This document shows positions 3,681-49,752 of a stretch of DNA of 64,000 bases, piece by piece (the stretch's first letter is position 1; every line of letters begins with the position of its first letter). Location: IMG/VR virus record IMGVR_UViG_3300029786_000322, one strand, 5' to 3'. The position numbers were made by a program, and so were the translations under genes. Source of the stretch: a virus. The notes beneath the pieces are model-generated. The model made no database searches, was not told the DNA's origin, and saw only the letters and a list, made by a program, of their open reading frames with translations.

Positions 3681-3702
3681 TCATAACGAAGGAAGTAAAC
3701 AG

Positions 3703-3757: not shown

Positions 3758-3758
3758 A

Positions 3759-4799: not shown

Positions 4800-4815
4800 A
4801 GCAAGGAGATATAAT

Positions 4816-5034: not shown

Positions 5035-5073
5035 GGAAAATAATAGAAAATAAGATTATAGGAGAAATAGTAC

Positions 5074-5406
5074 ATGTCAAAGAAAAAAATATCAAAAAAG
5101 AAAAATGTATTAAAGGTGTTATGGAATGAGTGTATAACATTCAAGGTGTTAATTTTTATCATAGCATATGTAGTGCTTGCGTTTATTAATATGCCATTTG
5201 AAAAATGGCTCTCACTTTATTTCGAATGGGAAAAATTAAAGGATTATCAAGAAGTATTCATGGAGGAGATAACATTATTAGTAATTCTCCCTCTCATGGA
5301 GATAGCTGCTGTTGCATTAATTTGTTTTATTATCTATGAGTTTTTTTGCTCTGTCAGTAAGATGATTGCATCTGATGAAGTAATTTCGATTGAAAAGGAA
5401 GAATGA
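5074..5406 (+). CDS. truncated paralog of the array-linked membrane protein (N-terminal TM part only)
   Basis: MSKKKISKKKNVLKVLWNEC matches the N-terminus of 25498-26145. RBS ATAGGAGAAATAGTACATG. Confidence 0.55.
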   Translation: MSKKKISKKKNVLKVLWNECITFKVLIFIIAYVVLAFINMPFEKWLSLYFEWEKLKDYQEVFMEEITLLVILPLMEIAAVALICFIIYEFFCSVSKMIASDEVISIEKEE

Positions 5407-5474
5407 TACGAAAAGAACACCGCTATTAGGTCAGAAATAAATAGCAGAGGTTTGCAGATATAAGGAGGATCGGA

Positions 5475-5645
5475 ATGTGTACTTTAAAGGATAAGTTAGT
5501 GGAATGTGGAGCATGTGTAGCAGCTGTAATTCTTGTGTTGGCAGTTTGTTATGGACTAAGTTGGATTGTAACATGTGGAGTTATTAAGCTGATTACGATG
5601 TGTTTTGGATTAACATTTAAGTGGTCCATTGCAACCGGTAAATGA
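5475..5645 (+). CDS. small Cys-rich membrane peptide, 56 aa
   Basis: Strong RBS TAAGGAGGATCGGAATG. Hydrophobic core AAVILVLAVCYGLSWIV. Confidence 0.4.
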   Translation: MCTLKDKLVECGACVAAVILVLAVCYGLSWIVTCGVIKLITMCFGLTFKWSIATGK

Positions 5646-5901
5646 GCTATGACAATATTAAATTTTATCATTGAGTGTTGGAAGAATTCTTGCGACGAAA
5701 AAATCAAAAGGAATTATGTTGAATCCCTTGCTAAAGTGGCGGTTTCAGTGGCCATCATTATTATATCTGTTTTATTATATTTGCACATATGAAATGTATA
5801 ACGGAAATGTATATTTTGGGGGAGGAGGGGTAAGTACAAACATAATTTTTAAAAAAGTAGCGCAAAGAAAGAATTCACTAATGCAGAAGGGGCGTAACAA
5901 T

Positions 5902-13950: not shown

Positions 13951-14002
13951 GAAAGAAGCCGTGGAATCCCGACTTTTCTGCTGCATTGTGTGTATATTTT
14001 AA

Positions 14003-14075
14003 CGCCGCCTGCGGGATTCGAACCCGCGGATAAAGAGTTCAAAGCTCCCTGCGTTAACCTTTTCGCCAAGGCGGA
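14003..14075 (-). tRNA. tRNA-Gln(TTG), provisional
   Basis: T-arm GCGGG-TTCGAAT-CCCGC, anticodon loop CTTTGAA, U1 as in Gln tRNAs. Acceptor pair 1-72 is mismatched. Confidence 0.5.
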
Positions 14076-14076
14076 G

Positions 14077-14144
14077 CACACCCGGAAGGACTCGAACCCT
14101 CGTTACCGGTTTTGGAGACCAGTTTCTGTCCATCAGACAGGTGC
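14077..14144 (-). tRNA. tRNA-Trp(CCA), provisional (short D-arm)
   Basis: Anticodon arm CTGGT-CTCCAAA-ACCGG identical to the canonical Trp arm. T-loop TTCGAGT. Acceptor GCACCTG/CGGGTGT has two G-U pairs. Confidence 0.5.
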
Positions 14145-14148
14145 ATAA

Positions 14149-14219
14149 CAGGCGATAATGGAATCGAACCATTGTTTTCTGAGTCAGAATCAGATGTCTT
14201 ACCATTGAACGAATCGCCC
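14149..14219 (-). tRNA. tRNA-Gln(CTG), provisional
   Basis: Anticodon arm TCTGA-TTCTGAC-TCAGA, T-arm AATGG-TTCGATT-CCATT. Confidence 0.55.
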
Positions 14220-14221
14220 AG

Positions 14222-14295
14222 TATCCCCAAAGGGACTCGAACCCTTAACCGACAGATTAGAAATCTGTTGCTCTTTCCAATTGAGCTATGGGGAT
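14222..14295 (-). tRNA. tRNA-Arg(TCT)
   Basis: Acceptor ATCCCCA/TGGGGAT, D-stem GCTC/GAGC, anticodon arm ACAGA-TTTCTAA-TCTGT, T-arm AAGGG-TTCGAGT-CCCTT. Confidence 0.7.
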
Positions 14296-14301
14296 ATATA
14301 G

Positions 14302-14391
14302 CGCAGACACCGGGGATCGAACCCGGACAGCGGGTGTGCCGCATGCCACATTAGCAGTGTGGAGGGGTACCATTTACCTTTATATGTCTGC
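14302..14391 (-). tRNA. class II tRNA-Ser(GCT), provisional
   Basis: 90 nt. Anticodon arm CCACA-CTGCTAA-TGTGG, long variable arm GCGG..CCGC, T-arm CCGGG-TTCGATC-CCCGG, acceptor GCAGACA/TGTCTGC. Confidence 0.55.
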
Positions 14392-14396
14392 ATAAG

Positions 14397-14468
14397 AGGC
14401 ATCGGAGGGGATCGAACCCTCGCCTTCCGGGTTGCAGCCGGACGCCTTCGCCGTTTGGCTACGATGCC
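14397..14468 (-). tRNA. tRNA-Cys(GCA)
   Basis: Acceptor GGCATCG/CGATGCC, anticodon arm TCCGG-CTGCAAC-CCGGA, T-arm GAGGG-TTCGATC-CCCTC. Confidence 0.7.
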
Positions 14469-14498
14469 ATATAATTCTTCCCGATAAGAGAAGATGAG

Positions 14499-14582
14499 CG
14501 CTGGGGCAGGGAGTCGAACCCTGATATCCTTTCGGAATGACGGTTTTCAGGACCGTTGCTTTACCAGTTGAGCCACCACAGC
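14499..14582 (-). tRNA. class II tRNA-Ser(TGA), provisional (C33, one acceptor mismatch)
   Basis: 84 nt. Anticodon arm ACGGT-CCTGAAA-ACCGT, variable arm TCC-GAAA-GGA, T-arm CAGGG-TTCGACT-CCCTG. Confidence 0.5.
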
Positions 14583-14827
14583 AAAAATAAAAGCATACAC
14601 CTCTCAATCGAAAGATGTATGCTTTGCAATTCCAGGTATTTCCAATATTCTCCCGGAAATTTCCCTACAATGACCACATTTCTTTCAATTTGAGACAATA
14701 TTTATTTGCACGACAACTACGCCAGATACATGACTGCGACTGACTCATACTTGCCTGTGAATATTGTCTCATTACTGCTGTAATCATTGATTTTCCCTTC
14801 CTTTCCTTGGTTTTCTTGAATATTTAG

Positions 14828-14901
14828 TGTGTCTGGTGGGACTTGAACCCGACGACCCCACGATTAAAAGTCGCGTGCTCTGCCAACTGAGCTACAGACA
14901 C
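14828..14901 (-). tRNA. tRNA-Lys(TTT)
   Basis: Acceptor GTGTCTG/CAGACAC, D-arm GCTC-AGTTGGCA-GAGC, anticodon arm CGCGA-CTTTTAA-TCGTG. The T-stem has a 1-nt bulge. Confidence 0.65.
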
Positions 14902-14906
14902 ATAAG

Positions 14907-14978
14907 CGGATCAGGAGGGAATCGAACCCTCATCTTCCGGTAGACAGCCGGATGTACTAGCCGCTATACTACAGATCC
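14907..14978 (-). tRNA. tRNA-Asp(GTC), provisional (U37, one acceptor U-U)
   Basis: Anticodon arm TCCGG-CTGTCTA-CCGGA, T-arm GAGGG-TTCGATT-CCCTC. Confidence 0.55.
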
Positions 14979-14982
14979 ATAA

Positions 14983-15055
14983 AGCTCCCGTCCGGCTTCG
15001 AACCGGAAACCTTCTGATTACAAGTCAGATGCACTACCAGTTGTGCTACAGGAGC
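14983..15055 (-). tRNA. tRNA-Thr(TGT)
   Basis: Acceptor GCTCCTG/CGGGAGC, D-stem GCAC/GTGC, anticodon arm TCTGA-CTTGTAA-TCAGA, T-arm TCCGG-TTCGAAG-CCGGA. Confidence 0.7.
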
Positions 15056-15139
15056 AGGAACACTTCCGACGGGTGCTGCCCCGCTATCTCCGCCGTGACA
15101 GGGCGGTGACTCTGTTGTTTGTCCTCGGAAGTAAATAAG

Positions 15140-15221
15140 TGCGCCGGGGAGGACTCGAACCTCCGGTGTTTCTTTGTGGCTGATTTACAGTCAGCTGCTG
15201 TCGCCTCTGAGCCACCGACGC
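15140..15221 (-). tRNA. class II tRNA-Tyr(GTA)
   Basis: Anticodon arm GCTGA-CTGTAAA-TCAGC, long variable arm, T-arm GGAGG-TTCGAGT-CCTCC, acceptor GCGTCGG/CCGGCGC. Confidence 0.7.
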
Positions 15222-15226
15222 ATAAG

Positions 15227-15298
15227 CTGGTCCGGAGGGTCTCGAACCCTCAACGCCCCGGTTAACAGCCGGGTGCTCTACCATTGAGCTACGGATCA
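15227..15298 (-). tRNA. tRNA-Asn(GTT)
   Basis: D-arm GCTC-AATGGTA-GAGC, anticodon arm CCCGG-CTGTTAA-CCGGG, T-arm GAGGG-TTCGAGA-CCCTC. One A-C acceptor mismatch. Confidence 0.65.
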
Positions 15299-15299
15299 G

Positions 15300-15371
15300 A
15301 GCATGTGACGGGTCTCGAACCCGCCCGTCCTGCTTGGAAGGCAGGTGTGCCGCCAACAACACTTCACATGC
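15300..15371 (-). tRNA. tRNA-Gly(TCC)
   Basis: Acceptor GCATGTG/CACATGC, anticodon arm CCTGC-CTTCCAA-GCAGG, T-arm GCGGG-TTCGAGA-CCCGT. Confidence 0.7.
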
Positions 15372-15436
15372 ATGCGGATAAAAGAAGTGCCTGTTTTCTC
15401 TTATCCATTCAGTTTTTTTACCGCATCGCTGCGGAG

Positions 15437-15508
15437 TGGACAGGAGTGGTAACGATCCACCCTGTAAGGATTTTCAGTCCTTCGCTAATCCATCTCAGCT
15501 ACCTGTCC
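15437..15508 (-). tRNA. tRNA-Phe(GAA) with an atypical T-loop (A54/U58 swapped)
   Basis: Perfect acceptor GGACAGG/CCTGTCC, D-arm GCTG-AGATGGAT-TAGC, anticodon arm AAGGA-CTGAAAA-TCCTT, T-arm GGTGG-ATCGTTA-CCACT. Confidence 0.55.
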
Positions 15509-16783: not shown

Positions 16784-17116
16784 TTGAAATGTTTGACATG
16801 CAAGAAACACTGGTCGCAGGGAGGCCGCTGTTCAGAGAACGTGAGAAACTGCCTGCATTATGAGGAAGAACCAAGAGGAAAAATGGTCCGCACAGAACTG
16901 TCTTTTCGTATGGATGCAGAGGCGGAAACTCCGGTGGTCAGATTTGGAGAGAAAATACTGGTTTCCGATGGTTCAAAAGCGGTCGAGATGACTGTGGTCA
17001 AGATCAACTGGGTTAATCTTCGGGATATGCTCTGCAATGTATCCGCGGATTATCATGAGAATGAGATGCCGCGATTTGAGAAAGAAAAGAAGTTCAAAGC
17101 ATTACATGGAAAATAG
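16784..17116 (+). CDS. hypothetical protein, 110 aa (TTG start)
   Basis: AAAGGAGGAGG RBS 9 nt upstream of the TTG. The stop codon abuts the first repeat of mini-array B. Confidence 0.5.
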   Translation: MKCLTCKKHWSQGGRCSENVRNCLHYEEEPRGKMVRTELSFRMDAEAETPVVRFGEKILVSDGSKAVEMTVVKINWVNLRDMLCNVSADYHENEMPRFEKEKKFKALHGK

Positions 17117-17222
17117 TTGCATTCCAGTGGAATGCATGGGGTGAAAGAAATAGGCAAATCGCATGACAATTTCTGAAATTAAATTGTTGCGCTCCCGTGG
17201 AGGGGGGCGTATGGATTGAAAT
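17116..17222 (+). CRISPR. mini CRISPR array B: 2 repeats, 1 spacer
   Basis: Repeats GTTGCATTCCAGTGGAATGCATGGGGTGAAA and GTTGCGCTCCCGTGGAGGGGGGCGTATGGATTGAAAT. Begins at the last base of the upstream stop codon. Confidence 0.55.
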
Positions 17223-18810: not shown

Positions 18811-18915
18811 GCTGCATCATGTGCGGGGGTGTATGGATTGAAATGTCGGAGTATGGTGTAAGAATCATATATATTCCTACGTTGTGCTCCTCCCGGTTGG
18901 TGCACGGGTTGAAAT
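18811..18915 (+). CRISPR. mini CRISPR array C: 2 repeats, 1 spacer
   Basis: GCTGCATCATGTGCGGGGGTGTATGGATTGAAAT, a 35-nt spacer, then GTTGTGCTCCTCCCGGTTGGTGCACGGGTTGAAAT. Starts 2 nt after the upstream stop codon. Confidence 0.55.
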
Positions 18916-19613: not shown

Positions 19614-20486
19614 ATGAGAAAAAGTGTGAAAGATTTTGGAAATTTTGTAAGAAAAGACAATTACCCGGAGCTTCCAGAAGAATTGAAAGAATTTAACTAT
19701 TTTTTGAGTGATGGCGAGACGGGACATGTGATCATGGCTGTGCCTGAGCACACTTTGAATAAAGCAGAAGAAAATGTGGATGAACTGGATGATTACGAAT
19801 GTCCAGTTCCAGTGGCATATGTTCTTAAGAATGGCTATCGGCTGTATAAGAACCATGTAATATGCCAGGTTCCGTACGATGAGAAACTGGGGGTGCGTAT
19901 TCCGGAAGAATATTACGAACCGTCGATTATTTCTACAGATGCCGGGGAAGCAGAGAATCCGGTGTCCGGAGAGTTCCCTTATGAGAAAAGGAAATGCTAT
20001 CCAGAATTTGCAAACCATGCAGAAGCTGTAGTTGCGGATATCGTTAAGGATTACGTGCAGATCCGCGTATTTTTTAAAAATCCTACAGAAAACGAGATTG
20101 CACAGTTTTCTCCGGATGCCAGACTGAAAATTCGTTTTACGGAGATGGATGGAACCTGTCTGTTTACCGTTAAAGCTGGTGATTTGTCATGGATGGATGC
20201 ACCATACCATGCAAAACTTGCAAAAGATTTGTCTGGATTCGACTTTACAGGTGAAAGTGAGATTCCGTTATATCTCCTCCTGATCGACTCATCGAATGGT
20301 GAGGTCAAAGCGGTTCGAAATGTCCAGTTGTCAGAAGAGTTTTCCAGCAAATTGAGAAATCTGGTGGATCGTCAGGTCAACTCTGATTTTGATAAAAAGA
20401 AATATGCGGATATATTGTCCAACATTTATCTCCTTTTTTCATCGGATGAGCTGGCGGATGCCAGCACCATTAAGTGTCAGTGGTAG
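19614..20486 (+). CDS. hypothetical protein, 290 aa
   Basis: RBS GGAGAAGGCAGAGAAAATG. Confidence 0.65.
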   Translation: MRKSVKDFGNFVRKDNYPELPEELKEFNYFLSDGETGHVIMAVPEHTLNKAEENVDELDDYECPVPVAYVLKNGYRLYKNHVICQVPYDEKLGVRIPEEYYEPSIISTDAGEAENPVSGEFPYEKRKCYPEFANHAEAVVADIVKDYVQIRVFFKNPTENEIAQFSPDARLKIRFTEMDGTCLFTVKAGDLSWMDAPYHAKLAKDLSGFDFTGESEIPLYLLLIDSSNGEVKAVRNVQLSEEFSSKLRNLVDRQVNSDFDKKKYADILSNIYLLFSSDELADASTIKCQW

Positions 20487-20506
20487 GTAAGAAGATATAC
20501 TTTACT

Positions 20507-20724
20507 GTTGCGCCCCATTGGGTGCATGGGTTGAAATCTTTATGACCTTCTGAAAAGTGAGGGCATCTTAGTTGCACCCCCGCAAGGGATGTATGGGTTG
20601 AAATTCAATAGAAACAGATGCATTCGAAGGCGTTACAAGTTGCACCCCGCGAGGGGTGTATGGGTTGAAATTGCAGAAAGCTCAGGATTGGAAGGTTGCA
20701 TCCTATGGGATGCATGGATTGAAA
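20507..20724 (+). CRISPR. mini CRISPR array D: 4 repeats, 3 spacers
   Basis: Repeats at 20507-20537, 20571-20604, 20639-20671 and 20695-20724 with divergent stems. Spacer 2 (20605-20637) is near-identical to spacer 2 of array A. Starts 20 nt after the upstream stop. Confidence 0.7.
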
Positions 20725-20764
20725 CGAACATATTTGTTATTATTTATTATTGAGATCAGAAAGG

Positions 20765-20800
20765 TCTGCAGTCAGTTAATCTGGCTGCAGATTTTTTTTG
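20765..20800 (+). terminator. rho-independent terminator
   Basis: TCTGCAGTCAG-ttaat-CTGGCTGCAGA followed by T8. Confidence 0.7.
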
Positions 20801-20828
20801 CAATTTTTTAAAAATTTTCCAAAATCTT

Positions 20829-20855
20829 TTGACGATTTTTTAAAAGGCGCAATAT
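20829..20855 (+). promoter_or_regulatory. conserved promoter-like element copy 7
   Basis: TTGACG-N11-GGCGCAATAT. Its flank CCAAAATCTTTTGAC matches spacer 3 of the main array. Confidence 0.6.
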
Positions 20856-20863
20856 ACATATTG

Positions 20864-21085
20864 AAGGGATAAACAGGGGCTTACCGTTTGTTTCTTCAAT
20901 AAGAGTTTTTCTCTTATATGCCTCCTTAAGTTTCCTGCGCTGCATTTACAGCATTTTGGCAGCGCAGGGGGAATCCACAGGACTGCATTTGACGTTGTGT
21001 GGCGGCCTGCTCATCCGGTTCAACCCCGGAGGATTCCCTTACCGCTTATTTTTGCGGAGACAAAAATTTTAAAAAATATTCAAAA
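20864..21085 (+). ncRNA. candidate small structured RNA between promoter copies 7 and 8
   Basis: No ORF with an RBS. Several strong hairpins, including CCTGCGCTGC...GCAGCGCAGG, GGGAATCC...GGATTCCC and CCGC-ttattttt-GCGG. Confidence 0.35.
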
Positions 21086-21090
21086 ATTCT

Positions 21091-21117
21091 TTGACGATTT
21101 TTTAAAAGGCGCAATAT
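21091..21117 (+). promoter_or_regulatory. conserved promoter-like element copy 8 (cas operon promoter)
   Basis: TTGACG-N11-GGCGCAATAT, 95 nt upstream of cas5. Confidence 0.65.
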
Positions 21118-21170
21118 GTGTATTGAAGGAATAAACAGGGGCTTGCCGCTGTTGATTACCAGAGTTAAAA

Positions 21171-21200
21171 GTTGTGCCCCTATGGGGTGCATGGGTAATA
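21171..21200 (+). CRISPR. solitary degenerate CRISPR repeat in the cas5 5' UTR
   Basis: GTTGTGCCCCTATGGGGTGCATGGGTAATA has the repeat 5' end and hairpin but a degenerate 3' handle. Confidence 0.35.
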
Positions 21201-21210
21201 AGAGAAAGGA

Positions 21211-21885
21211 ATGGAAAAAGAAAAAATGGGAGTGAAACTAAAAGTCTGGGGAGATTACGCATTGTTCACCAGACCAGAACTGAAAACTGAACGGTATACA
21301 TACGATGTGATGACACCGTCGGCGGCTAGAGGAATTCTGGAATCTATCTACTGGCATCCGGGACTTCGGTGGTATGTAGACAAGATTCATGTATTAAATC
21401 CGATTGCCACTACGAGCGTGAGAAGAAATGAACTTCTCAGTAAGATACCAAAGTCAAATATGCTGCAGGCATACAACGGCGGGGATGTGAAACTGTATAA
21501 CTCGTCAAGAGACGATATTATCCAGAGGGCATCTGTTATTCTCCGGGATGTCTGCTATGTGATTGAGGCGCATTTTGAAATGACAGGGAAAGCGAGCCCA
21601 ACAGACAGCCCGGCAAAGTTTATAAGTATCTTTAACAACAGGGCAAGAAAAGGGGCATGTTATTCGATGCCGTATTTTGGTGTAAGGGAATTCCCGGCAC
21701 ACTTTGAACTCTGCGAAGGAGATGAAAAGATCCCATCCTACTATGAAGGACTTCCGGATAAAGATCTCGGGCTGATGCTTTATGATCTGGATTACTCCTG
21801 CGGTAGAGATATCCAGCCAATGTATTATCATGCGATTATGAAAAACGGCGTTATTGACGTTGGGAACAGTGAGGTGCTTCGATGA
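21211..21885 (+). CDS. cas5: Cas5 (type I-C Cas5d, crRNA-processing subunit)
   Basis: N-terminal LKVWGDYALFTRPE...SAARGILESIYWHPG is the Cas5d signature. The stop overlaps the cas8c start (ATGA). Confidence 0.9.
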   Translation: MEKEKMGVKLKVWGDYALFTRPELKTERYTYDVMTPSAARGILESIYWHPGLRWYVDKIHVLNPIATTSVRRNELLSKIPKSNMLQAYNGGDVKLYNSSRDDIIQRASVILRDVCYVIEAHFEMTGKASPTDSPAKFISIFNNRARKGACYSMPYFGVREFPAHFELCEGDEKIPSYYEGLPDKDLGLMLYDLDYSCGRDIQPMYYHAIMKNGVIDVGNSEVLR

Positions 21886-23621
21886 TCCTTCAGTCACTTG
21901 TGAAATTATATGAAACACTTGCGGATCAGGGAAAAGTGTCCCGTCCTGGCTGGTGTAATGCAAAGGTATCCTATGCGGTGGTTTTAAACCATGATGGGAC
22001 GATTAAAGATATTGTTTCCGTGAAACAGAAAGTGAAGAGAGGAAAGAAGACTGTTGAAATTCCAATAATTATGCAGGTTCCAGAGATGGTCACCCGCGCT
22101 AACAACATTGCCTCCAGCTTTCTCTGCGAAAATGCAAAGTATCTCTTTGGGATTGACGAAAAGATGAGTTTGCGTACACTGGAATGTTTTAAGGCGGCAA
22201 AGAAAAAACATCTTGATATTCTTGATGTTGTGGATTCACCTGTAGCACAGACGGTATGTAACTTTTTCCGTTCATGGGATCCGGAACAGGCGTTGGATCA
22301 ACCGGCTGTTGCAAAACTTGCAGAAGAGTTTTATAAAGGCGGAAACCTCGTTTTTGAAGTAGATGGGGAATATGTGCATGATAATGAAGAAGTCCGCAGG
22401 GCATGGATGGATTACAGCAGTGTACCATATGAAATGGTAACTGGAAGATGCCTTATTACTGGAGAGGAAGCGGAGATTGCCCGCACGCACGGGAAAATCA
22501 AAGGAGTTCCGGGAGCACAGTCATCTGGCGCGTCGCTTGTATCATTTAACGGAGCATCCCTTGAGTCTTATGAAAAAACACAGAGCTACAACGCGCCGAT
22601 TAGCACCTATGCGGCGTATGCATATGTGACCGCGCTGAATTACTTGCTTTCTACGGACGGGTATCACAGCAAGGTAGGAGATTCCATGGTGGTTTTCTGG
22701 ACAGATTCCGGGGATGTGGATGATGTGAGCAGACTGCGGAAGATGATGGGAAGCATCAATGAAAAGGATCACACCCCTACAGATACGGATGAAAAACTGT
22801 ACGTCCTCTGCCTTGCACCAAATGCCGGGCGAATTGCAGTCCGGTTCTTCTATGAGGATGCGATCGGGGTAATCTGGGAAAACCTGTCCGAACATGCCAG
22901 TCGGATGAAGATTGTAAAACCAGTATTTGAGGATCAAGAATTTATCAATATCTGGCAGATGCTCATGGAGACAGTCAACCAGAATCTTACAGATAAAACA
23001 CCTGTCCCGCATATGTCAGCAATGACGTTACAGTCAGTCATTTCGGATACACCGTATCCGCAGAGTCTGTATGCAGGTGTGTTATCTCGTATCCGCGCGG
23101 AGCACAAAGGTGTTACTTACAGAAAAGCATCGATTATTAAAGCTTTTTTAATAAAGAACTACAAATGGGAGGAAGGAAAAAATATGGAAGCATTAAATGA
23201 AGGCTGTAAGGATCGGGCATATATCCTTGGAAGACTGTTTGCGGTTATGGAAAAGGCACAGAAAGAAGCAGTTGGCAATATCAACCAGACAATTTGTGAT
23301 AAGTTTTACAATTCCGCGTGCACAACACCAAGATCGATCTTTCCAGTACTGATCAGGCTATCTAACAGTCATTTAAGTAAGTTGAAACGGACAAAACCGG
23401 GGAGAGGATATTATTTTACAGCTAAAATGCAGGATTTAATGGATAAAATTCCGGTAACAGATGATGATCCGGGATTCCCGCGGCGTTTCTCATATGAGGA
23501 TCAGGGTAAGTTTGCACTTGGTTATTATCATCAGATGCGGGCGGAATATACAAGCAGTAAGTTAAAAGATAATGATTCAGAAGGTGATCAGACAAATGCA
23601 GAGAATATGGAGGAAAACTAA
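21882..23621 (+). CDS. cas8c: Cas8c (Csd1), type I-C large subunit
   Basis: 579 aa. Its position between cas5 and cas7 and its size fit Csd1. N-terminal MILQSLVKLYETL. Confidence 0.85.
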   Translation: MILQSLVKLYETLADQGKVSRPGWCNAKVSYAVVLNHDGTIKDIVSVKQKVKRGKKTVEIPIIMQVPEMVTRANNIASSFLCENAKYLFGIDEKMSLRTLECFKAAKKKHLDILDVVDSPVAQTVCNFFRSWDPEQALDQPAVAKLAEEFYKGGNLVFEVDGEYVHDNEEVRRAWMDYSSVPYEMVTGRCLITGEEAEIARTHGKIKGVPGAQSSGASLVSFNGASLESYEKTQSYNAPISTYAAYAYVTALNYLLSTDGYHSKVGDSMVVFWTDSGDVDDVSRLRKMMGSINEKDHTPTDTDEKLYVLCLAPNAGRIAVRFFYEDAIGVIWENLSEHASRMKIVKPVFEDQEFINIWQMLMETVNQNLTDKTPVPHMSAMTLQSVISDTPYPQSLYAGVLSRIRAEHKGVTYRKASIIKAFLIKNYKWEEGKNMEALNEGCKDRAYILGRLFAVMEKAQKEAVGNINQTICDKFYNSACTTPRSIFPVLIRLSNSHLSKLKRTKPGRGYYFTAKMQDLMDKIPVTDDDPGFPRRFSYEDQGKFALGYYHQMRAEYTSSKLKDNDSEGDQTNAENMEEN

Positions 23622-23622
23622 G

Positions 23623-24534
23623 ATGAGCACACCAATTAAGAACAGATATGATTTCGTAGTATTATTCGACGTAGAGAATGGAAATCCGAACGGTGATCCG
23701 GATGCCGGAAATATGCCGAGAGTTGATCCAGAGACTGGCATCGGGCTTGTGACAGATGCCTGCATAAAGCGCAAGATCCGTAATTATGTGGAAACTGTAA
23801 AAGAAGATGCAGCCGGGTTCAAGATCTATATTAAAGAGGGGGTCCCGCTGAACCGGAGTGACCTTAAGGCAGTCGAAAGTCTTGGTATTGACGTCGGTGA
23901 CGACAAAAATGCACTTGAAGATGTAAAGAAGCTGAAAAAGACAGATGAAGATGTGGATCTTAAGCTCCGTGACTATATGTGTAGTAATTTCTATGATATC
24001 CGTACATTTGGTGCTGTCTTGACTACCTTTACAAAGGCGGCATTAAACTGTGGGCAGGTACGTGGCCCGGTACAGATTGGTTTTGCAAAAAGTATTGATC
24101 CTGTTTTCAGCCAGGATATTACTGTAACCAGAGTTGCAATCACAACGGAAAAGGATGCGGAAAAGAAAAATACAGAAATGGGAAGAAAGAGTATTATTCC
24201 TTATGGACTTTACCGTGTGGAGGGATATATTTCTGCTAATCTTGCCCGTAAGACCACCGGCTTTTCTGAAGACGATCTGGAACTGCTTTGGGAAGCAATC
24301 ATTAACATGTTTGAGAATGACCATTCCGCAGCACGCGGGAAGATGGCAGTGCGTGAGCTCATCGTATTCAAGCATAACAGCGAGCTTGGCAATTGTCCAT
24401 CGTACAAACTGTTTGAAACTGTTGATGTTAAGAAGAATGATGGTGTTGAGTTTCCTCGTAAATATTCCGATTATGCAGTGACTATTCATGAGGATGCGAT
24501 TCCGGATGGCGTGACAATGACTCGCAAAATCTAA
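23623..24534 (+). CDS. cas7: Cas7 (Csd2), type I-C backbone subunit
   Basis: Start at MSTPIKNRYDF with a GGAGGA RBS. DVENGNPNGDPDAGNMPR is the Csd2 signature. Confidence 0.9.
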   Translation: MSTPIKNRYDFVVLFDVENGNPNGDPDAGNMPRVDPETGIGLVTDACIKRKIRNYVETVKEDAAGFKIYIKEGVPLNRSDLKAVESLGIDVGDDKNALEDVKKLKKTDEDVDLKLRDYMCSNFYDIRTFGAVLTTFTKAALNCGQVRGPVQIGFAKSIDPVFSQDITVTRVAITTEKDAEKKNTEMGRKSIIPYGLYRVEGYISANLARKTTGFSEDDLELLWEAIINMFENDHSAARGKMAVRELIVFKHNSELGNCPSYKLFETVDVKKNDGVEFPRKYSDYAVTIHEDAIPDGVTMTRKI

Positions 24535-24784
24535 AAAGATTTCCAGAGATTACAAGGCAACCCGCGTTTTGCGGGCTGCATCTGCTTGGGTTATGCCGAA
24601 ATGTAGAATTCCGGTGCGAACTGAAAGCTTACATAGCTTCTCTGGGAGACTCGCACCGGAAATGGAGGTATTAGTGTACAAAAAGAACACAAAACCCAAC
24701 TGTATAAGGCCGTTTGAGAACAATTAATTAGAGGAATTGTTTATATTTTGGCGATCGGGAGAGTTGTTTCTGTTCACTTTTACA

Positions 24785-25482
24785 GCTACGCCCCATGGAG
24801 GGGCGTATGGATTGAAAATGATTGTTATTGTTTTTTATTCATGGAGAGGAAAGCTACGCCCCATGGAGGGGCGTATGGATTGAAAAGTAAGGTTTCGTCT
24901 CGAAGCCTTTATTCTGTTTTGCTACGCCCCATGGAGGGGCGTATGGATTGAAATACCAAAATCTTTTGACATTCTTATAAATGGTAACAGCTACGTCTTA
25001 TGGGGTACGTATGGATTGAAATCATAATAATTGTAGAGATCTCAATACAAAATAAAGCTGCGTCTCATGGAATACGTATGGATTGAAATGAAAAGGCGAG
25101 TTTGCGAAAGCAGATATTGGAATGTTGCGTCTCGTGGAGTACGTATGGATTGAAATTCCAACTTTAACTACATAACTATCCTGATAAACTTGCTGCACCC
25201 CATGGAGAGTGTATGGATTGAAATTTAAAAAATCATGGATAACATCTGCGATAAGACGTTGCACCTCGCTAGGGGTGTATGGGTTGAAATTTCCATAATC
25301 GGTAGCCAATTATTATCATTAGGTGTTGCACCCCATAGAGGGTGTATGGATTGAAATTATATAAAAATGATGAATATGTAAAAAAAATAAAAGAGTTACG
25401 CTCCATGGAGTGCGTATGGCTTGAAACCTCTTATTTTTTTAAAGATATCACAATTACGCCCAAAGTGGGCTTACGTAAATTT
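24785..25482 (+). CRISPR. main CRISPR array: 10 repeats of 33 nt plus a degenerate terminal repeat, spacers of 33-37 nt
   Basis: Repeats at 24785, 24853, 24921, 24990, 25057, 25124, 25192, 25258, 25325 and 25395. A degenerate eleventh sits at 25454-25482. The first three are identical (GCTACGCCCCATGGAGGGGCGTATGGATTGAAA). Later ones keep the GYTRC 5' end and TATGGATTGAAAT 3' handle but have different, internally complementary stems. Confidence 0.85.
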
Positions 25483-25497
25483 AAAGGAGAAAAGTAC

Positions 25498-26145
25498 ATG
25501 TCAAAAACAAAAGGAATATCAAAAAAGAAAGATATATTAAAGGTATTTTGGAATGAGTGTGCAGTATTTAAGGTAGTTGTTTGTATTCTTGCGTATGTGA
25601 TACTCGGCTTTATCAATATACCAATTAACAGGTGGCTTACATTTCATGTACCTAAATGGTCAGATGGGAAACTACATGATATAACAGGATCATTTTTTGT
25701 TCTTCCTATCCTTGAAGTATTAGCGGTCACTTTAATTTATCTTATCGCTAATGGATGCTTTTATTTCATCAGCAAGATGATCGCGTACAGGAATTACTGT
25801 TACATTCCGCTTACGGAAGATGAAATTAAAGGAAAGAAATTTAAGAATGCAAATGAGTATTTTTCCTATGTCCTCAATGTCCTTTCCTATGGTTTTAAGA
25901 ATGAAAAAGAAAATCTCCAGGTTAGTGATGATGATCTTCGAGAAATGCTTATAACTTGTCTGATTGTATTCCCTGATAATGGGACAATATTTCAGATAAA
26001 ACCAGAAACTGCGTGGAATGTTTCAGACGACATCCTTTTCTCCGAAGCCGTTGAATTGAATTGCGGAAAAGCAGAAATAATTGATAAGCATGTTGTATTG
26101 TCTGGTGATAATAGAAACGGCAAAAGAGAAGAATATACAGTGTGA
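25498..26145 (+). CDS. membrane protein with two N-terminal TM helices, array-linked paralog family (copy 2)
   Basis: Paralog of 4152-4799. RBS AAAGGAGAAAAGTACATG. Starts 16 nt after the terminal degenerate repeat. Confidence 0.7.
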   Translation: MSKTKGISKKKDILKVFWNECAVFKVVVCILAYVILGFINIPINRWLTFHVPKWSDGKLHDITGSFFVLPILEVLAVTLIYLIANGCFYFISKMIAYRNYCYIPLTEDEIKGKKFKNANEYFSYVLNVLSYGFKNEKENLQVSDDDLREMLITCLIVFPDNGTIFQIKPETAWNVSDDILFSEAVELNCGKAEIIDKHVVLSGDNRNGKREEYTV

Positions 26146-26196
26146 AAGTTGATAGGTCCTCATTCGAATTTTTTATCAAATTATGGAGGAATGGCA

Positions 26197-26721
26197 ATGG
26201 AAACAATAAGAGATTACGAAGCAATGGTATACGTACTTGAACATAACCGGAAAAGTGCCGGAACAGGTGAAAATATCAGTTGGAAGAAAATATCATATGA
26301 AAAGTTAAGTAAAGAGATGAAAAGCTATACCGGACGGATTAAGCGTATGCTTGGAGAACTTATATTAAACGGACGGATAGAGATTAAAACAGAACGTCCT
26401 TTTGTTTACCGTGTTCTTATTAAATCCGTGTTTACAGAAGAAGAATTTAAGGAATACCAGGATACCCGTCTTCTTGGAAAATTCCATGACTCATTATCAA
26501 AATTAACTGATACTGTGGAAACTGCTTCCGAAACAGTACAAGCTGTTTGGCGTCCAAGTGAAGCTATGCAGAAACGCCAGACGGGTGCGGGGAATACGTT
26601 TGTGTATAGCAAAGGGAATTCTTTAAGCGTGCATGAGAGTTTTGAACGGTCAAAACAGAACCGGGAATACCGGCCGGCAGGAGAAAAGGCAGGAAAGAGA
26701 AAAGCTGTAACGATATGGTAA
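26197..26721 (+). CDS. hypothetical protein (possible DNA-binding regulator)
   Basis: GGAGGA RBS with 6-nt spacing to the second ATG. Confidence 0.45.
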   Translation: METIRDYEAMVYVLEHNRKSAGTGENISWKKISYEKLSKEMKSYTGRIKRMLGELILNGRIEIKTERPFVYRVLIKSVFTEEEFKEYQDTRLLGKFHDSLSKLTDTVETASETVQAVWRPSEAMQKRQTGAGNTFVYSKGNSLSVHESFERSKQNREYRPAGEKAGKRKAVTIW

Positions 26722-26749
26722 TTAAAAAGTAGGAAGGAAGTGAAGCGGA

Positions 26750-27214
26750 ATGTATGGTCTTATTATTAAGAAAAAATGGTTGGATTTAATCATGAGCGGG
26801 CAGAAGACTCTGGAGATCCGCGGAAGCAGGACTTCCCATGCAGGAGAAGAGATTGCGCTTCTCGAAAGCGGATCACAGAAGATCCGTGGTTTTTGTACGA
26901 TTAAAGAAGTAACGGCCTTGGATAAAGGAAAATGGGAAGCACACAGGGATCGCCATTGCGTGGATGTGCCGTGGGAAAATCTTATTAAACGATATAAGAC
27001 GCCATATGCGTGGCACTTATCTTCAATCACACCAACGGAGGAACTTACATATGAGCATCCAAAGGGTGCCGTGATCTGGGTTAACCTGGATCATGTTCCT
27101 GTATTTAAAAAAATGAACAATAAAGGAAGAAATTGTCATGAACAAATCAAGGGAACCAGCTTGCACAAATATTTCATCTCGGGAGGGTTCTATGGAAAAT
27201 ATCATAACTTATAA
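26750..27214 (+). CDS. ASCH-domain (PUA-like) protein
   Basis: KKKWLDLIMSGQKTLEIRGSRTSH matches the ASCH N-terminal beta-barrel motif. Confidence 0.55.
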   Translation: MYGLIIKKKWLDLIMSGQKTLEIRGSRTSHAGEEIALLESGSQKIRGFCTIKEVTALDKGKWEAHRDRHCVDVPWENLIKRYKTPYAWHLSSITPTEELTYEHPKGAVIWVNLDHVPVFKKMNNKGRNCHEQIKGTSLHKYFISGGFYGKYHNL

Positions 27215-27596
27215 AACGACAAACTTATTTTCAACACCAGATCTGGTTTCTCTTTTCACATCTGTTGGATGGGTTAATGAAAGTGCAGAATATCCTAATC
27301 GATTGGAAAATGCAATGTATCATTCAGATATTGTTTTTAGCGCATGGGACGGAGATAAGCTTGTTGGTTTATTAAGTACCATAAGTGATACAATGCATGT
27401 TTATATAACATATCTTCTAGTCGATCCATCTTATCAAAATAGAAAGATAGGTACTAAATTGTTAAATATGTTTGAAAAACATTATGTTAATTACAAAAAA
27501 GAACTTAAAACGGAGAAAGCATCAGATTATTATAAACGCTTTGGGTGGCATTCGGATTCTGTGGGGATGGTTAAGAATGATCTTCCCCCTTTATGA
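27192..27596 (+). CDS. GNAT-family N-acetyltransferase
   Basis: GGGAGGG RBS. Motif A QNRKIGTKLL plus YYKRFGW. Confidence 0.65.
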   Translation: MENIITYKTTNLFSTPDLVSLFTSVGWVNESAEYPNRLENAMYHSDIVFSAWDGDKLVGLLSTISDTMHVYITYLLVDPSYQNRKIGTKLLNMFEKHYVNYKKELKTEKASDYYKRFGWHSDSVGMVKNDLPPL

Positions 27597-27751
27597 TTAT
27601 TGATTCTTAACAAATGCACCAATTGCGAAGTAGAAGGAGACGCAAATGTCATATATGAGTGAGTGGATTTATTCCGAAGAAGATGCATATTTTATTATTT
27701 TAGCAGTTGCTGATATTGTAACAGGGATTTCAACACTTGGAGGTTTTAACC

Positions 27752-28177
27752 ATGAATAACGTTGTATTGATAATTATAGCTATTGCCACAACATTTGTAA
27801 TTGATAAAGTATTTGATGATGTTCTAAGTCCTGCTGCAAAGTTTATTGTGACATTGTTGACGATATTGTTTTTCGTTTTTATTTATGTTTTTGGACAGTA
27901 TGCAGCGGGTTCTGCCACTGCTGAACTACACAAATTTGTAGAACAACTTGATACGGAACAGCAGAATCAGGTAGTTGAGACAGAAAAACAAGCTAATCCA
28001 AAAAAGCAAACAAGAAAAGAGCAGGAAGAGAAATTACATAAACTTGCCGCATCTGGTAAAGCGAAGATTGTAATAGATGGTGAACCGACAAGTGATGAGT
28101 TTGATATTGATGGCATTAAATTAAAAGATTATGATATCAAATTTAAGAATGGAAAAGTCTATTTGATATCAAAATAG
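27752..28177 (+). CDS. membrane protein. C-terminal domain is paralogous to 37364-37699
   Basis: GGAGG RBS. Two TM helices. C-terminal DIDGIKLKDYDIKFKNGKVYLISK matches DIDINGINLDRYNIKIKEGKIYLIDK. Confidence 0.5.
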   Translation: MNNVVLIIIAIATTFVIDKVFDDVLSPAAKFIVTLLTILFFVFIYVFGQYAAGSATAELHKFVEQLDTEQQNQVVETEKQANPKKQTRKEQEEKLHKLAASGKAKIVIDGEPTSDEFDIDGIKLKDYDIKFKNGKVYLISK

Positions 28178-32332: not shown

Positions 32333-32524
32333 TTTCTTGCGGAGCAGAGCAGAGGAAGGCTCACCGGGCTCATGACCTGGGTGTCGGATGTTCGATTCCT
32401 TTCTCCGCAATTAATTTTAAAAAAGGGAGGTTATAACATGTTCTAACTGATTAGAAAACATAAACAAGCATTCGTTCAAAAGAAAGATTCGTATGTGAAA
32501 AAAGGATGGGAGGAAAAGAAAATC

Positions 32525-34444: not shown

Positions 34445-34515
34445 TCAGATCCGCAAAGTTGCCTCATGCCGGGGCAGTTTCTTATCGTCAAATACGGATA
34501 CACAGAGGTTTAAAT

Positions 34516-35256
34516 ATGTTGGAAAAATACAGTTATGAATTGTGGAATGGAAATTGTCTGGAATTAATGAAATCTATTCCTGATAAATCAATAGATATGA
34601 TTTTATGTGATCTGCCATATGGGACAACTAAGTGCAAATGGGATATCGTAATACCATTTAAACCAATGTGGGATCAATATAGTCGTATTGCAAAAGATAA
34701 TGCTGCAATCGTATTGTTTGGACAGGAGCCATTTTCTTCTTTATTAAGGGTAAGCAATATCAGCGATTACAAGTATGATATTTACTGGGAAAAAGAGCGG
34801 TTAACAAATATTAATCAGGTTAAACGGAGAGTTGGGAAAACTGTAGAGACAATATCTGTATTTTATAAAAAACAATGTACATATAATCCTCAAATGGTTA
34901 AGCATGAAGGGAAACTAAGGAAAAACAGGGTAAAAAATGGTAAACTCGGAAAACTTACAGATGAAAATGAAAAAAAAGTAATTGAGTATAATGATACTGG
35001 GTGGCGTTACCCTACGCAAGTTTGGAAATTCCAAAGAGATTGTCTGACTTCAAATTTGCATCCAACCCAAAAACCATTGCTTTTATGTGAGACACTTGTC
35101 AAAACATTTTCCAATGAAGGCGATATTGTCCTGGATAATTGTATGGGGTCTGGAACAGTTGGTGTAGCATGCAAACTTCTAAACCGTAAATTTATTGGTA
35201 TAGAACTTGAAGAGAACTATTTCAAAATTGCAAAGGAAAGGATTAGCCAAAATTGA
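34516..35256 (+). CDS. DNA N6-adenine / N4-cytosine methyltransferase (beta class)
   Basis: DLPYG (DPPY-type catalytic motif) comes early. The SAM-binding FxGSG motif comes late (NCMGSGTVGVA). Confidence 0.7.
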   Translation: MLEKYSYELWNGNCLELMKSIPDKSIDMILCDLPYGTTKCKWDIVIPFKPMWDQYSRIAKDNAAIVLFGQEPFSSLLRVSNISDYKYDIYWEKERLTNINQVKRRVGKTVETISVFYKKQCTYNPQMVKHEGKLRKNRVKNGKLGKLTDENEKKVIEYNDTGWRYPTQVWKFQRDCLTSNLHPTQKPLLLCETLVKTFSNEGDIVLDNCMGSGTVGVACKLLNRKFIGIELEENYFKIAKERISQN

Positions 35257-37073
35257 GAAAAGGACAGATTAAATTACTGGAAAAAGCAGAAAAAGAAGGA
35301 TTTACAGAAGAACAGCTGGCTGTATTACGTGGTAATCAGATGTTATACACTTTAGATTATTATTACTTTTTGCTGAAGCGTGGTGTTTCTGCTTCTGTAA
35401 TTAATGCAATCATCAAAGCTGGTGAAGGATGGGGAATGCATTCGTTTGGATTCCAGTTGATGGAATGTGGTTATTCATTGGAGGATATCCTTACATATAT
35501 TGAGAAAAGCAAAAAGCTGTTACTTAATCATAATTATTTTTACGAAGAGATCATGACAGGGAAAAGTAAAAATGAAACTGATGTGTCTTTGCGTAAAAGC
35601 TATGCAGAAACACTTATACAGATTCCCGAATTATTGAGTTGCCATGATCAATATATTACAAGGGCTGTCGAATTTGCAATCAATTCACGAATTTCAGTGA
35701 AAGATTTTATTGAGGAATTTTTCCCAAAGGAAGAGGATAGCTGGAAGGTCTTTAGAAACGGAAATTATAAAGATAGCCAGTATACCGCTTTACTTTCGTT
35801 TTGGCGTAACCATATTCCACATTTATCAGACTTGTTATTGCCCAATGACAACAGTTTGTTTTACGAGCAGAAAGAAGTAGCTTTGGAAGATCAGATGAAA
35901 CTTTTTATGGAAGCATGGAAAGCCCTTAACCATGTAACAGGGAAAGAACATTTCATTAAAATAAAAGACTGCCCCATGTACTACAGGAGTATTGACATTA
36001 ATAAGTCAGCAGTTAATATTGATCTGGCTTCGTCTTCTTATACAAATATTAACAATGGCGAATTCCATTTTGATGCACCGGAAGTATCTATGAAACTGGT
36101 CATTTTTCATTCCGGTGGATATTACTATAAGGGTTTCAAAGACCGGCTGTTTCCGCTTTCCTTAAAGAAATTAAGTTCCATATGGAATGATTATGGAAAT
36201 CTTGGAAAACAGGTGGTTGCATTCATCCTTGGACATGCAATGGAAAAATTAAATGCCCCGGTCATGAAGGATATCCTGCGAACATTTGAAAAAGATAATT
36301 TTATGCTGCTTCCAATCAGACTTATCGACTGCCGAGATTCGTATAATTACAATCATCTGCTTCAGAAGAGGTGGGTTGCTGCGGATAAGATCAACTGGAG
36401 CAGGACAGACGTCAACCTTGCTTACCTCGTAATTAAAAGTCTTCCGTACCTGGGACGTGAAATCGATAAAAAACGATTATTACAGACAAAAGATGCATCC
36501 CTGCTTGATGTGGTGGATTCTTCCTTCTGGAAGAGGAGATGGAACAACAAATGTATTTCCACTTTCCTCGGATGCTTTATTGCAGACGGTATCAGTGATG
36601 TGCCTGAAGACGGCGGTCTGAATAAGGTCAGAACCACAGCGGATGATTACATAAAAATGGCACACGAGATGCACCAAAAGGTTAAGCTTGGGTTCCGTAG
36701 CTGGAAGAAACTTAAGGATGCGCATGACAAAATATCAAAGAAATACAAAAATCGACTTCACCGGGTGCATGTTCCAAAGAACAGCAAGTTCAACCATCTG
36801 AGGGAACTGCTCCCGGAATCCTATGAATGGATCCGTACAGGCAGCCGTCTCCGCATGGAAGGTATTGAGATGGGACACTGTGTGAATTCTTACTGGCAAT
36901 ACATAAACCAGGATACCTGTGCCATATATTCCTTTACAGCAGGAGAAAAACGCTACACTGCAGAATTCCGTGTTGGCAGTAACGGGAAATATACGGTCCG
37001 GCAGATCCAGTCAAAGTATGACAGGGGATGTCCGGCTTCTGTCCGGAAACAGGTGGGTAAGTTGATTTCCTAA
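35253..37073 (+). CDS. hypothetical large protein, 606 aa (TTG start)
   Basis: Long clean ORF. A PcfJ-like assignment for the C-terminal region is possible but uncertain. Confidence 0.55.
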   Translation: MRKGQIKLLEKAEKEGFTEEQLAVLRGNQMLYTLDYYYFLLKRGVSASVINAIIKAGEGWGMHSFGFQLMECGYSLEDILTYIEKSKKLLLNHNYFYEEIMTGKSKNETDVSLRKSYAETLIQIPELLSCHDQYITRAVEFAINSRISVKDFIEEFFPKEEDSWKVFRNGNYKDSQYTALLSFWRNHIPHLSDLLLPNDNSLFYEQKEVALEDQMKLFMEAWKALNHVTGKEHFIKIKDCPMYYRSIDINKSAVNIDLASSSYTNINNGEFHFDAPEVSMKLVIFHSGGYYYKGFKDRLFPLSLKKLSSIWNDYGNLGKQVVAFILGHAMEKLNAPVMKDILRTFEKDNFMLLPIRLIDCRDSYNYNHLLQKRWVAADKINWSRTDVNLAYLVIKSLPYLGREIDKKRLLQTKDASLLDVVDSSFWKRRWNNKCISTFLGCFIADGISDVPEDGGLNKVRTTADDYIKMAHEMHQKVKLGFRSWKKLKDAHDKISKKYKNRLHRVHVPKNSKFNHLRELLPESYEWIRTGSRLRMEGIEMGHCVNSYWQYINQDTCAIYSFTAGEKRYTAEFRVGSNGKYTVRQIQSKYDRGCPASVRKQVGKLIS

Positions 37074-41257: not shown

Positions 41258-41402
41258 TATAATGAATTACGTTTTAAATTTATGGCGAAAAATCCACAGG
41301 CTTGCCTGTGGGATGAAAGCTACATTTTTCACTTACTTGTTTCAACAGTTGGACACATAAGTGAAACTACAGTGATCAAATACATTGAGGAGCAGAAAAC
41401 AC

Positions 41403-46040: not shown

Positions 46041-46064
46041 GAAACAGGGAAAGGGAGGGAACGT

Positions 46065-48427: not shown

Positions 48428-48445
48428 TAAGGTTACTTTATAAAA

Positions 48446-49748: not shown

Positions 49749-49752
49749 AATA

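Follow-up and report, generated by a model that had tools for sequence, protein, structure and literature searches.

Type I-C CRISPR-Cas loci, as described from D. vulgaris, B. halodurans, S. mutans and Lachnospiraceae, have the gene order cas5c-cas8c-cas7, the protospacer-adjacent motif (PAM) TTC and a gain of spacers at the leader end of the array. Their repeats are 32-34 nt long, with a 2-nt 5' tail, a stem of 7-8 bp, a loop of 4-5 nt and the handle UGGAUUGAAAY. The locus analysed here shares all of these features in its sequence and predicted structure; it lies in a 64,000-nucleotide stretch of the IMG/VR virus record IMGVR_UViG_3300029786_000322 (hereafter the window). Unlike the canonical loci, it is without cas3 and cas4-cas1-cas2, its Cas8c is only about 50% identical to theirs, a U-A pair closes the repeat stem, 7 of the 10 repeats in its array are distinct, and its repeats are distributed over seven loci.

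Other described systems resemble this locus in part. Huge phages carry type I-C variants without Cas1, Cas2 and Cas3 (Al-Shayeb et al., 2020, PMC7162821). They share with our locus the large mobile element, the reduced system and the compact arrays, and host Cas proteins or transcriptional silencing were proposed for them, but there a helicase located beside the cas genes stands in for Cas3, and no heterogeneity of repeats was described (PMC7162821). Mini-arrays, solitary repeats and Racr (PMC10651486, PMC10120712) are likewise short repeat-spacer-repeat arrangements outside a main array, with a degenerate distal repeat and on a mobile element; in contrast to these, the present element has Cascade genes of its own and many such arrangements per replicon, with different stems, at least one being demonstrably a detached piece of a main array. 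Compensatory stem changes have been described between CRISPR repeat families, from arrays that belong to different organisms (Kunin et al., 2007, PMC1896005), whereas here they occur inside a single array and a single replicon. Each of these is known already: type I-C systems in reduced form on huge elements, mini-arrays and solitary repeats, and compensatory changes from one repeat family to another. What appears to be undescribed is their combination here: structure-preserving repeat diversification within one array and replicon, an active head, targets with the correct PAM, and mobile array pieces.

The locus is on a very prevalent extrachromosomal element of the human gut, roughly 220-360 kb in size. 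Human-gut contigs that carry it measure 217-357 kb, and its exact Cas8c protein occurred in 1584 data blocks of human gut metagenomes, on contigs of up to 357 kb. The element is probably identical with the recently named Hodor megaplasmids, which are conjugative, come from the human gut, measure 211-389 kb and carry a type I-C locus and TnpB genes (bioRxiv 2026, PMC12934698). Habitat, size range, the odd array and the TnpB genes agree; GC content is 39.5% in the window against reported averages of 44.6-47.1% in Hodor (PMC12934698). About 80 kb of the element (window plus flanks) was seen, and none of the Hodor hallmarks (Rep_3, ParA/B/M, VirB4/VirD4/type IV secretion system, sortases, giant surface proteins) was found within it. 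The preprint deals with the system in a single main-text clause and calls what is probably the same array "apparently degraded" (PMC12934698); unlike the present analysis, it is without covariation, live acquisition, PAM-flanked targets and mini-arrays. Our results refine this remark, the only one published on the array.

We consider it likely that this is a genuine type I-C array, in an unusual slow-turnover variant whose fragments are dispersed as mini-arrays and whose layers were frozen and then reshuffled by recombination.

The cas genes and the repeats of the main array

The three cas genes lie on the + strand in the order cas5c (21211-21885, encoding the Cas5d-type endonuclease for the CRISPR RNA (crRNA) precursor), cas8c (21882-23621, the large subunit) and cas7 (23572-24534). 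All three exceed the curated NCBIfam cut-offs (TIGR01876, 176 bits with a cut-off of 85; TIGR01863, 400 bits; TIGR02589, 342 bits). Identity to the nearest chromosomal proteins is very uneven: about 79% for Cas7 (at most 79% to the chromosomal Cas7 of Lachnospiraceae), about 63% for Cas5c and about 50% for Cas8c. For Cas8c there are no intermediates between the element's own cluster at 88-100% and proteins at 52% identity. A 744-aa Cas8c with 44% identity (P0002), considered as a diverged second lineage, belongs to an ordinary chromosomal locus with cas3 and cas4-cas1-cas2. The element's Cas5c matched the D. vulgaris enzyme (8DEX) at E 2e-65 and has Tyr47 and Lys136, with Phe137 at the position of the D. 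vulgaris His. Of 79 chromosomal relatives that have long arrays, 78 share this Tyr/Lys/Phe combination, and the His of Cas5c is reported to be replaceable (PMC8524198).

No match to the Cas1, Cas2, Cas3 and Cas4 families was found among the 72 other open reading frames (ORFs) of the window or in the flanks that were seen, and none to the Cas3/HD family among the window ORFs or the flanks of about 20 kb. A helicase at 1281-3584 was considered as a Cas3 substitute and rejected: it matched restriction-type helicases best, the "possible alternative Cas3" model reached only 6.6e-07, and the gene lies 18 kb away. In chromosomal relatives cas3 lies upstream, and cas4-cas1-cas2 separates cas7 from the array, which begins about 2.2 kb past cas7; the element instead has a 250-nt leader (24535-24784, +) where its relatives have this block of about 2.2 kb. 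The leader contains an 11-bp inverted repeat (24609-24619 and 24651-24661, 31 nt apart), and right after cas7 there is a short GC-rich hairpin (24560-24577) that is not followed by a T-run.

The main array (24785-25427, +) consists of ten 33-nt repeats (M1-M10, starting at 24785, 24853, 24921, 24990, 25057, 25124, 25192, 25258, 25325 and 25395) separated by spacers of 33-37 nt. Its head (24785-24954, +) contains two spacers and the three repeats M1-M3, which are identical (GCTACGCCCCATGGAGGGGCGTATGGATTGAAA), as the original prediction stated. The tail (24990-25427, +) holds M4-M10, seven mutually different repeats with their spacers. Each of the seven begins with GYTRC and ends with TATGGNTTGAAA, so the prediction that repeats 4-10 keep both ends applies to all of them in outline; the variable handle position is G in M8 and C in M10, and the final base of M10 is C. 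The array had also been drawn to 25482. By eye, a possible terminal unit (ATTACGCCCAAAGTGGGCTTACGTAAATTTAAAGG) can be placed at 25453-25485 (+), where it overlaps the ribosome-binding site (RBS) of the next gene (ATG at 25498), but the covariance model built from the repeat units did not detect it, and we regard it, speculatively, as at most a decayed remnant.

Repeats within this array differ from one another at 3-11 of about 33 positions, with a mean pairwise distance of 6.07 nt. In 62 arrays from 80 chromosomal type I-C relatives, used as controls, the median of the same measure was 0.08 nt, in line with the earlier statement that repeats of one array are normally near-identical. The only equally heterogeneous control array (of the 62) is on an Angelakisella contig from a metagenome-assembled genome (L081, 6923-7286; CAKSYU010000019.1), where cas3-cas5-cas8c-cas7 is followed by six units whose repeats all differ. 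This genome is unrelated to the element, and its array, too, directly follows cas7 without cas4-cas1-cas2. Some other chromosomal relatives (L019, L059, L079) have compensated or foreign-type repeats at the trailer end.

The covariance model, when used to scan the 64-kb window, recovered 27 units, all on the + strand and 24 of them distinct. Ten belong to the main array, and the other 17 form six mini-arrays and one solitary unit. Over the 24 distinct units, the cells of the 8-pair stem are paired in 90.4% of cases and 19 cells in four pairs are altered on both sides; pairing and covariation this high were reached by 0 of 500 shuffles, which is a count and not a probability, and slid registers of the stem gave 29-70% pairing. 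The set of 48 distinct units from several lineages was 92.7% paired with 32 double-sided cells, again matched by 0 of 500 shuffles. Comparison with shuffled controls had been proposed together with the original claim, and it came out in favour of pairing. The mini-arrays were also correctly said to behave as the main array does, with paired and covarying stems. That the two arms change together likewise finds support in the 19 double-sided cells, but the main array alone contributes only two blocks of such change, U-A in M4-M6 and A-U in M7-M9. The arm pair TGCACCCC/GGGGTGCA, quoted as an example from the main array, was misplaced and belongs to mini-array unit A2 at 3891.

Pairing is strongest in the stem's basal part, where the five pairs nearest the cleavage site are formed in 24, 24, 24, 24 and 23 of the 24 units; the three upper pairs are kept in 18 of 24, 21 of 24 and 11 of 19. 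Basal pairs swap among units between G-C and A-U and between C-G and U-A. The pair-type spectra (GC 27, GU 17 and AU 4; AU 30, GC 12 and GU 6; CG 29, UA 11 and UG 6) are those of compensatory evolution via wobble intermediates. The statement that structure is kept while sequence drifts is thus accurate for the stem base and the handle, but not for the upper stem, which is broken in four of the seven divergent repeats. Among lineages, change at one site can be followed in the orthologous unit of mini-array B, at the stop codon of a 110-aa ORF: one of its pairs is C-G in the window, U.G in L093 and L095, and U-A in L092, and two further pairs are U-A or C-G depending on the lineage. These changes are compensation in place.

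The bases that follow the pairs are conserved as well. The last stem base is A in 48 of 48 distinct units and is followed by U (42 of 46), G (46 of 46) and G (46 of 46); across the 24 distinct window units A↓UGG is invariant. The next position varies freely, and UUGAAA is mostly retained. Cas5c is reported to cleave at the 3' base of a 7-bp stem; it requires U22-G23-G24, the base of this stem and the 3' overhang, and can do without the loop and the 5' tail (PMC8524198). Since the retained features match these published needs and the element's Cas5c is close to the D. vulgaris enzyme, the conservation pattern is the one to be expected if selection acted on processing by Cas5c. Of the 48 element units, 47 have a U-A closing pair, compared to C-G in 65 of 66 chromosomal arrays, a difference that may make the crRNAs private to the element's diverged Cas5c and Cas8c. 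No CRISPR-DR family of Rfam fitted the repeats, even at E up to 1.

Spacer gain, targets and dispersed units

Copies of the locus from other samples differ mainly at the leader end. Relative to the window, one extra spacer was present in L002-L006, two in L001 and three in L097, each accompanied by a copy of the head repeat. The four newest repeats of L097 share a 1-nt deletion (GGGCG) that is missing from its older repeats, so a mutation in the leader repeat is passed on to later acquisitions. The array is therefore live: it still gains spacers at the leader end, and each new one brings a copy of the leader repeat then in use. The seven tail repeats and their spacers, in contrast, were identical in at least 11 independent assemblies (L001-L006, L097, L101, L103, L104, L124); their order was the same across samples and assemblers, and the differences between copies were confined to the leader end and a few single bases. 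Lineages with a Cas8c 88-94% identical to that of the window have the same gene neighbourhood and a different head repeat (GTTGCACCCCGCGAGGGTGCATGGATTGAAAT), and the array of L092 has no uniform head whatsoever.

Three spacers of the window and one from another lineage have protospacers with a TTC PAM, which shows that the spacers are real immune memories acquired next to this motif. The head spacer at 24887-24920 matched an IMG/VR contig (L090) over 34 of 34 nt, directly after TTC and beside a replication-initiator gene. The tail spacer at 25090-25123 matched a gut contig over 30 of 34 nt with a TTC PAM; the terminal spacer (25358-25394), which is ancient and common to several lineages, has a TTC-flanked protospacer; and the head spacer of another lineage has one with 34 of 34 nt. 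The last three protospacers lie within 830 bp of a single gene for a 323-aa protein. The target stretch (L116 2391-3220, also in L100, L113, L115, L120 and L121) is within or just upstream of this transposase-flanked gene, whose product matched no Pfam or PHROG family. In some copies of the target the PAM is ATC or TTT instead of TTC, changes that look as escape mutants would. Primed adaptation in type I systems needs Cas3 and Cas1-Cas2. The clustering of targets resembles such adaptation.

The ancient spacer, TAT[A/G]TAAAAATGATGAATATGTAAAAATAAAAGA, is flanked by different repeats in the window and in other lineages, and the window copy has three additional A. Another spacer, (A)TACCGCAACAATTAAAGGCAATGAAAATCTTGTAC, was found in L002-L006, L097 and L109. 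Its neighbouring spacers differ among these three array contexts, and in L109 the repeats beside it differ too, which suggests independent acquisitions from one invader. A partial match to it (18 of 19 nt) occurs in a chromosomal array, L033. A regulatory mini-array of the CreR/CreTA type would hold a spacer with partial complementarity to a cas or toxin promoter beside a PAM. Main-array spacer 3 (24955-24989) is identical over 15 of 15 nt to a promoter-like motif at 20819-20833, where the flanking triplet is TTT rather than TTC. Apart from this match and the duplicated spacer of mini-arrays A and D (below), no spacer matched the window itself. Against GenBank phages and PLSDB plasmids, all spacers gave only chance-level matches. 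In scans of IMG/VR, one of five spacers matched, and the other four and the head repeat did not. None of the 1336 spacers of the 80 chromosomal loci matched the element over its full length.

Outside the main array, all units are on the + strand, co-oriented with the genes, and spacer-length gaps give a repeat-spacer-repeat arrangement to 26 of the 27 units in the window. Mini-array A (3759-3992) has four units and three spacers, and a copy of the promoter-like motif (3647-3690) precedes it by about 85 nt. Mini-array B (17116-17222) has two units, the first of which overlaps the upstream gene's stop codon and starts on its final base. Mini-array C (18811-18915; two units, one spacer) is conserved in L095. 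Mini-array D (20507-20725; four units) and mini-array F (62781-62872; two units) are each followed by a terminator-like hairpin (at 20758-20798 in the case of D), and mini-array E (45942-46045) has two units, the second of which (46010-46045) is degenerate and just upstream of an RBS and ATG at 46066. The only solitary unit (21171-21201, 27.6 bits with the covariance model) has a degenerate handle, lies 10-25 nt upstream of the cas5c start (21211 or 21226) and is conserved in L001, L002, L005 and L095.

These units are related to each other and to main arrays elsewhere. Unit F1 is identical to A1 and to a main-array tail repeat of other lineages. The block D2-spacer-D3 is a duplicate of A1-spacer-A2, with the middle spacer of D identical to a spacer of A at 32 of 34 positions. 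D2 is chimeric: its 5' half is that of A2 and its 3' half that of A1, which accounts for its C.A mismatch, and D2 and D3 are missing from L001 and L095. The main array of L109 continues without a break into DNA that is 93% identical to window positions 3823-4440 (mini-array A and the downstream gene), and behind the array of L117 lies a homologue of 48267-50381. Given these fusions, the D/A duplication and the D2 chimera, arrays are recombination junctions and mini-arrays are detached array pieces; the units lie at junctions where lineages exchange gene blocks. A megablast search of positions 20000-28000 against GenBank phages and PLSDB plasmids returned nothing.

Origin of the repeat diversity

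The slow-turnover array most likely arose as follows. The adjacent adaptation genes and the Cas3 gene would have been lost from the element's locus, and adaptation, and probably Cas3, would come from a type I-C system of the host (with the same 11-nt handle) or from an unseen part of the element. With adaptation supplied from elsewhere, spacer acquisition would be rare, and each rare event would freeze the leader repeat of its time while the leader repeat drifts by structure-preserving steps. The array would then be a stratigraphic record, with the repeat version of its period in each layer. Cas5c processing would limit the drift: the basal stem, the scissile A↓UGG and the 3' handle (in the crRNA, the 5' tag) would be retained, and only the loop and upper stem could drift or decay freely; old units would persist with a partly decayed upper stem, and recombination between arrays and lineages would mix the layers and scatter them as mini-arrays. 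We did observe that old units persist unchanged across many samples and that the leader repeat differs over time and between lineages. The original prediction had offered two origins for the diversity. Acquisition from different sources is directly supported by the D2 chimera, the duplicated D/A block and the L109 fusion. Individual maintenance fits the in-place compensation of unit B, but much of the diversity is more simply explained by copies of a drifting leader repeat, and the upper stem is gone from four of the seven repeats in the tail.

Several results weigh against this explanation. RNAfold gave -15.3 kcal/mol for M1-M3, -11.7 for M8 and -10.3 for M9, and of the divergent repeats only these last two resemble the fold of M1-M3; M6 is weak, and M4, M5, M7 and M10, at -2.7 to -5.3 kcal/mol, fold no better than shuffled sequences. 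The proposed folding of every repeat thus supported the claim in part, and because four of the seven tail repeats are no better than shuffles, some tail units may be dead already. The shuffle control for pairing ignores relatedness among the units. Neighbouring repeats are barely more similar than distant ones: the gradient of similarity along the array is marginal (adjacent distances, p ~0.05; Mantel-type r 0.21, p 0.16). The order of repeat versions (ACGC, GCAC, GCGT, ACGT, ACGC) follows no simple path, and recombination may for this reason outweigh stratigraphy in shaping it. The window copy of the ancient spacer has a 3-nt insertion relative to its target. In two control loci (L070 and L087) the array also directly follows cas7, yet its repeats are uniform, so an absence of adjacent adaptation genes is insufficient for heterogeneity, and an array abutting cas7 can be ruled out as its sole cause. 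Lastly, cas3 and cas1-cas2 may lie elsewhere on the element, since only about 80 kb of its 220-360 kb was seen.

Plain decay would make the locus a dying CRISPR remnant, with complementarity left over from a perfect palindrome. This is how the preprint's "apparently degraded repeat array" (PMC12934698) could be read, and the weak hairpins of four tail repeats, the degenerate handles on terminal units, the damaged ancient spacer of the window lineage and the absence of cas1, cas2, cas3 and cas4 from the window would all follow from it. Random decay, however, breaks pairs, yet basal pairs persist in 23-24 of 24 units, 19 cells are altered on both sides, the orthologous B unit passes through C-G, U.G and U-A, and the cleavage context A↓UGG is retained. 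Nor would a remnant be expected to gain spacers at its leader end in nature or to keep cas genes that are intact and identical across hundreds of samples. We think plain decay an unlikely account of the array. Ordinary trailer-end degeneration also grows with distance from the leader, but in ordinary arrays only the final 1-3 of tens of repeats are involved, whereas here 70% of the array and every mini-array unit have diverged with the basal stem fully kept.

A second alternative is selection for non-repetitiveness, under which diverged repeats would block recombination that deletes spacers or rearranges the plasmid, and over long periods only units between dissimilar repeats would survive. 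Recombination of this kind does occur, as the joining of different gene blocks by arrays in L109 and L117 and the presence or absence of D2-D3 among copies attest, and spacers between the identical head repeats vary among copies while the heterogeneous tail is fixed. But a fixed tail is equally expected from recent common ancestry, and the chimeric repeats show that divergence does not stop recombination. As the whole explanation such selection is improbable; it may contribute as a factor rather than as an alternative identity for the array.

We also considered that the dispersed units and the Cas3-less Cascade could form a layer of RNA punctuation or regulation, in which Cas5c cuts transcripts and autoregulates the cas genes and the repeats serve as recombination sites. 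The degenerate terminal units at 21171-21201, 25453-25485 and 46010-46045 are directly upstream of RBSs or start codons; the genes behind them are cas5c (21211/21226), the gene at 25498 and the gene at 46066. Unit B0 (17116), in turn, starts on a stop codon. If this were true, Cas5c would split polycistronic transcripts into defined mRNAs and crRNAs, and the repeats would also serve cassette shuffling, with a loose likeness to integron attC sites, in which structure rather than sequence is conserved. We rate this tentative idea as unlikely.

Units that mimic host repeats could instead act as Racr-like decoys, soaking up host Cas5c or Cas7 and shielding the plasmid in a new host. The 11-nt handle is indeed the same as in chromosomal arrays of Lachnospiraceae, a type I-C Racr from elsewhere has been validated (PMC10651486), methyltransferases abound in the region and a helicase is present, as in anti-defence regions, and solitary units exist (21171-21201, and the B unit in L092, L093 and L095). 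Against this stand the repeat-spacer-repeat form of 26 of 27 units, several spacers with PAM-flanked targets, the Cascade genes on the same element and a closing pair unlike that of host repeats. We judge this very unlikely for the locus as a whole; a decoy role could apply to the few solitary units. An assembly artefact from collapsed or mis-joined arrays, which the original prediction had raised as a possible refutation, can be dismissed with near certainty given that the same variants recur in the same seven-repeat order across at least 11 assemblies, made from different samples with different assemblers.

As a slow-turnover array, the locus would preserve a time series of repeat evolution that fast turnover usually erases. 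At least 48 repeat variants presumably act with one Cas5c and Cascade and so constitute a natural mutational scan of what type I-C crRNA biogenesis tolerates, a map that would be useful for designing non-repetitive, recombination-proof multiplex arrays. It is also a Cas3-less, adaptation-less locus on a highly prevalent gut element that gains spacers and repeatedly targets one locus, which raises the question of whether host Cas3 and Cas1-Cas2 are borrowed or the targets are silenced.

Neighbouring genes and the promoter-like motif

The window also encodes methyltransferases, a restriction-type helicase, a flotillin, a PcfJ-like protein and YopX, and is flanked by a Mob_Pre relaxase and by LPD1 and LRR_5 proteins. 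The helicase and a 684-aa Dcm-like methyltransferase are at 1281-7725, with an LPD1-domain protein upstream of the window (L126 4938-6854), and a second methyltransferase and the PcfJ-like protein are at 34459-37073. This content of methyltransferases, helicase, LPD1 and PcfJ is typical of anti-restriction or leading regions of conjugative elements.

The promoter-like motif of about 35 nt (AAAATCTTTGACGATTTTTTAAAAGGCGCAATATGTAT) had 13 matches at up to 3 mismatches, compared to 1.2 expected, with + strand sites at 1033, 3647, 9809, 12596, 17622, 20822, 21084, 44092 and 57402. It precedes many gene blocks, including mini-array A, and occurs twice upstream of cas5c in a duplicated segment of about 90 nt (20800-20890 and 21060-21150); no copy was found within the leader.

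Thirteen tRNA genes (Gln x2, Trp, Arg, Cys, Ser, Lys, Asp, Thr, Tyr, Asn, Gly, Phe) are clustered at 14002-15508 on the - strand, whereas nearly all protein genes lie on the other, and there is a weak Rfam tRNA call at 32338-32410 (+). Two TnpB-like ORFs lie on the + strand at 41385-42791 and 57486-59015, with matches to a PHROG transposase and to OrfB_IS605 with a Cas12f1-like TNB domain; the second stands directly behind a copy of the promoter-like motif.

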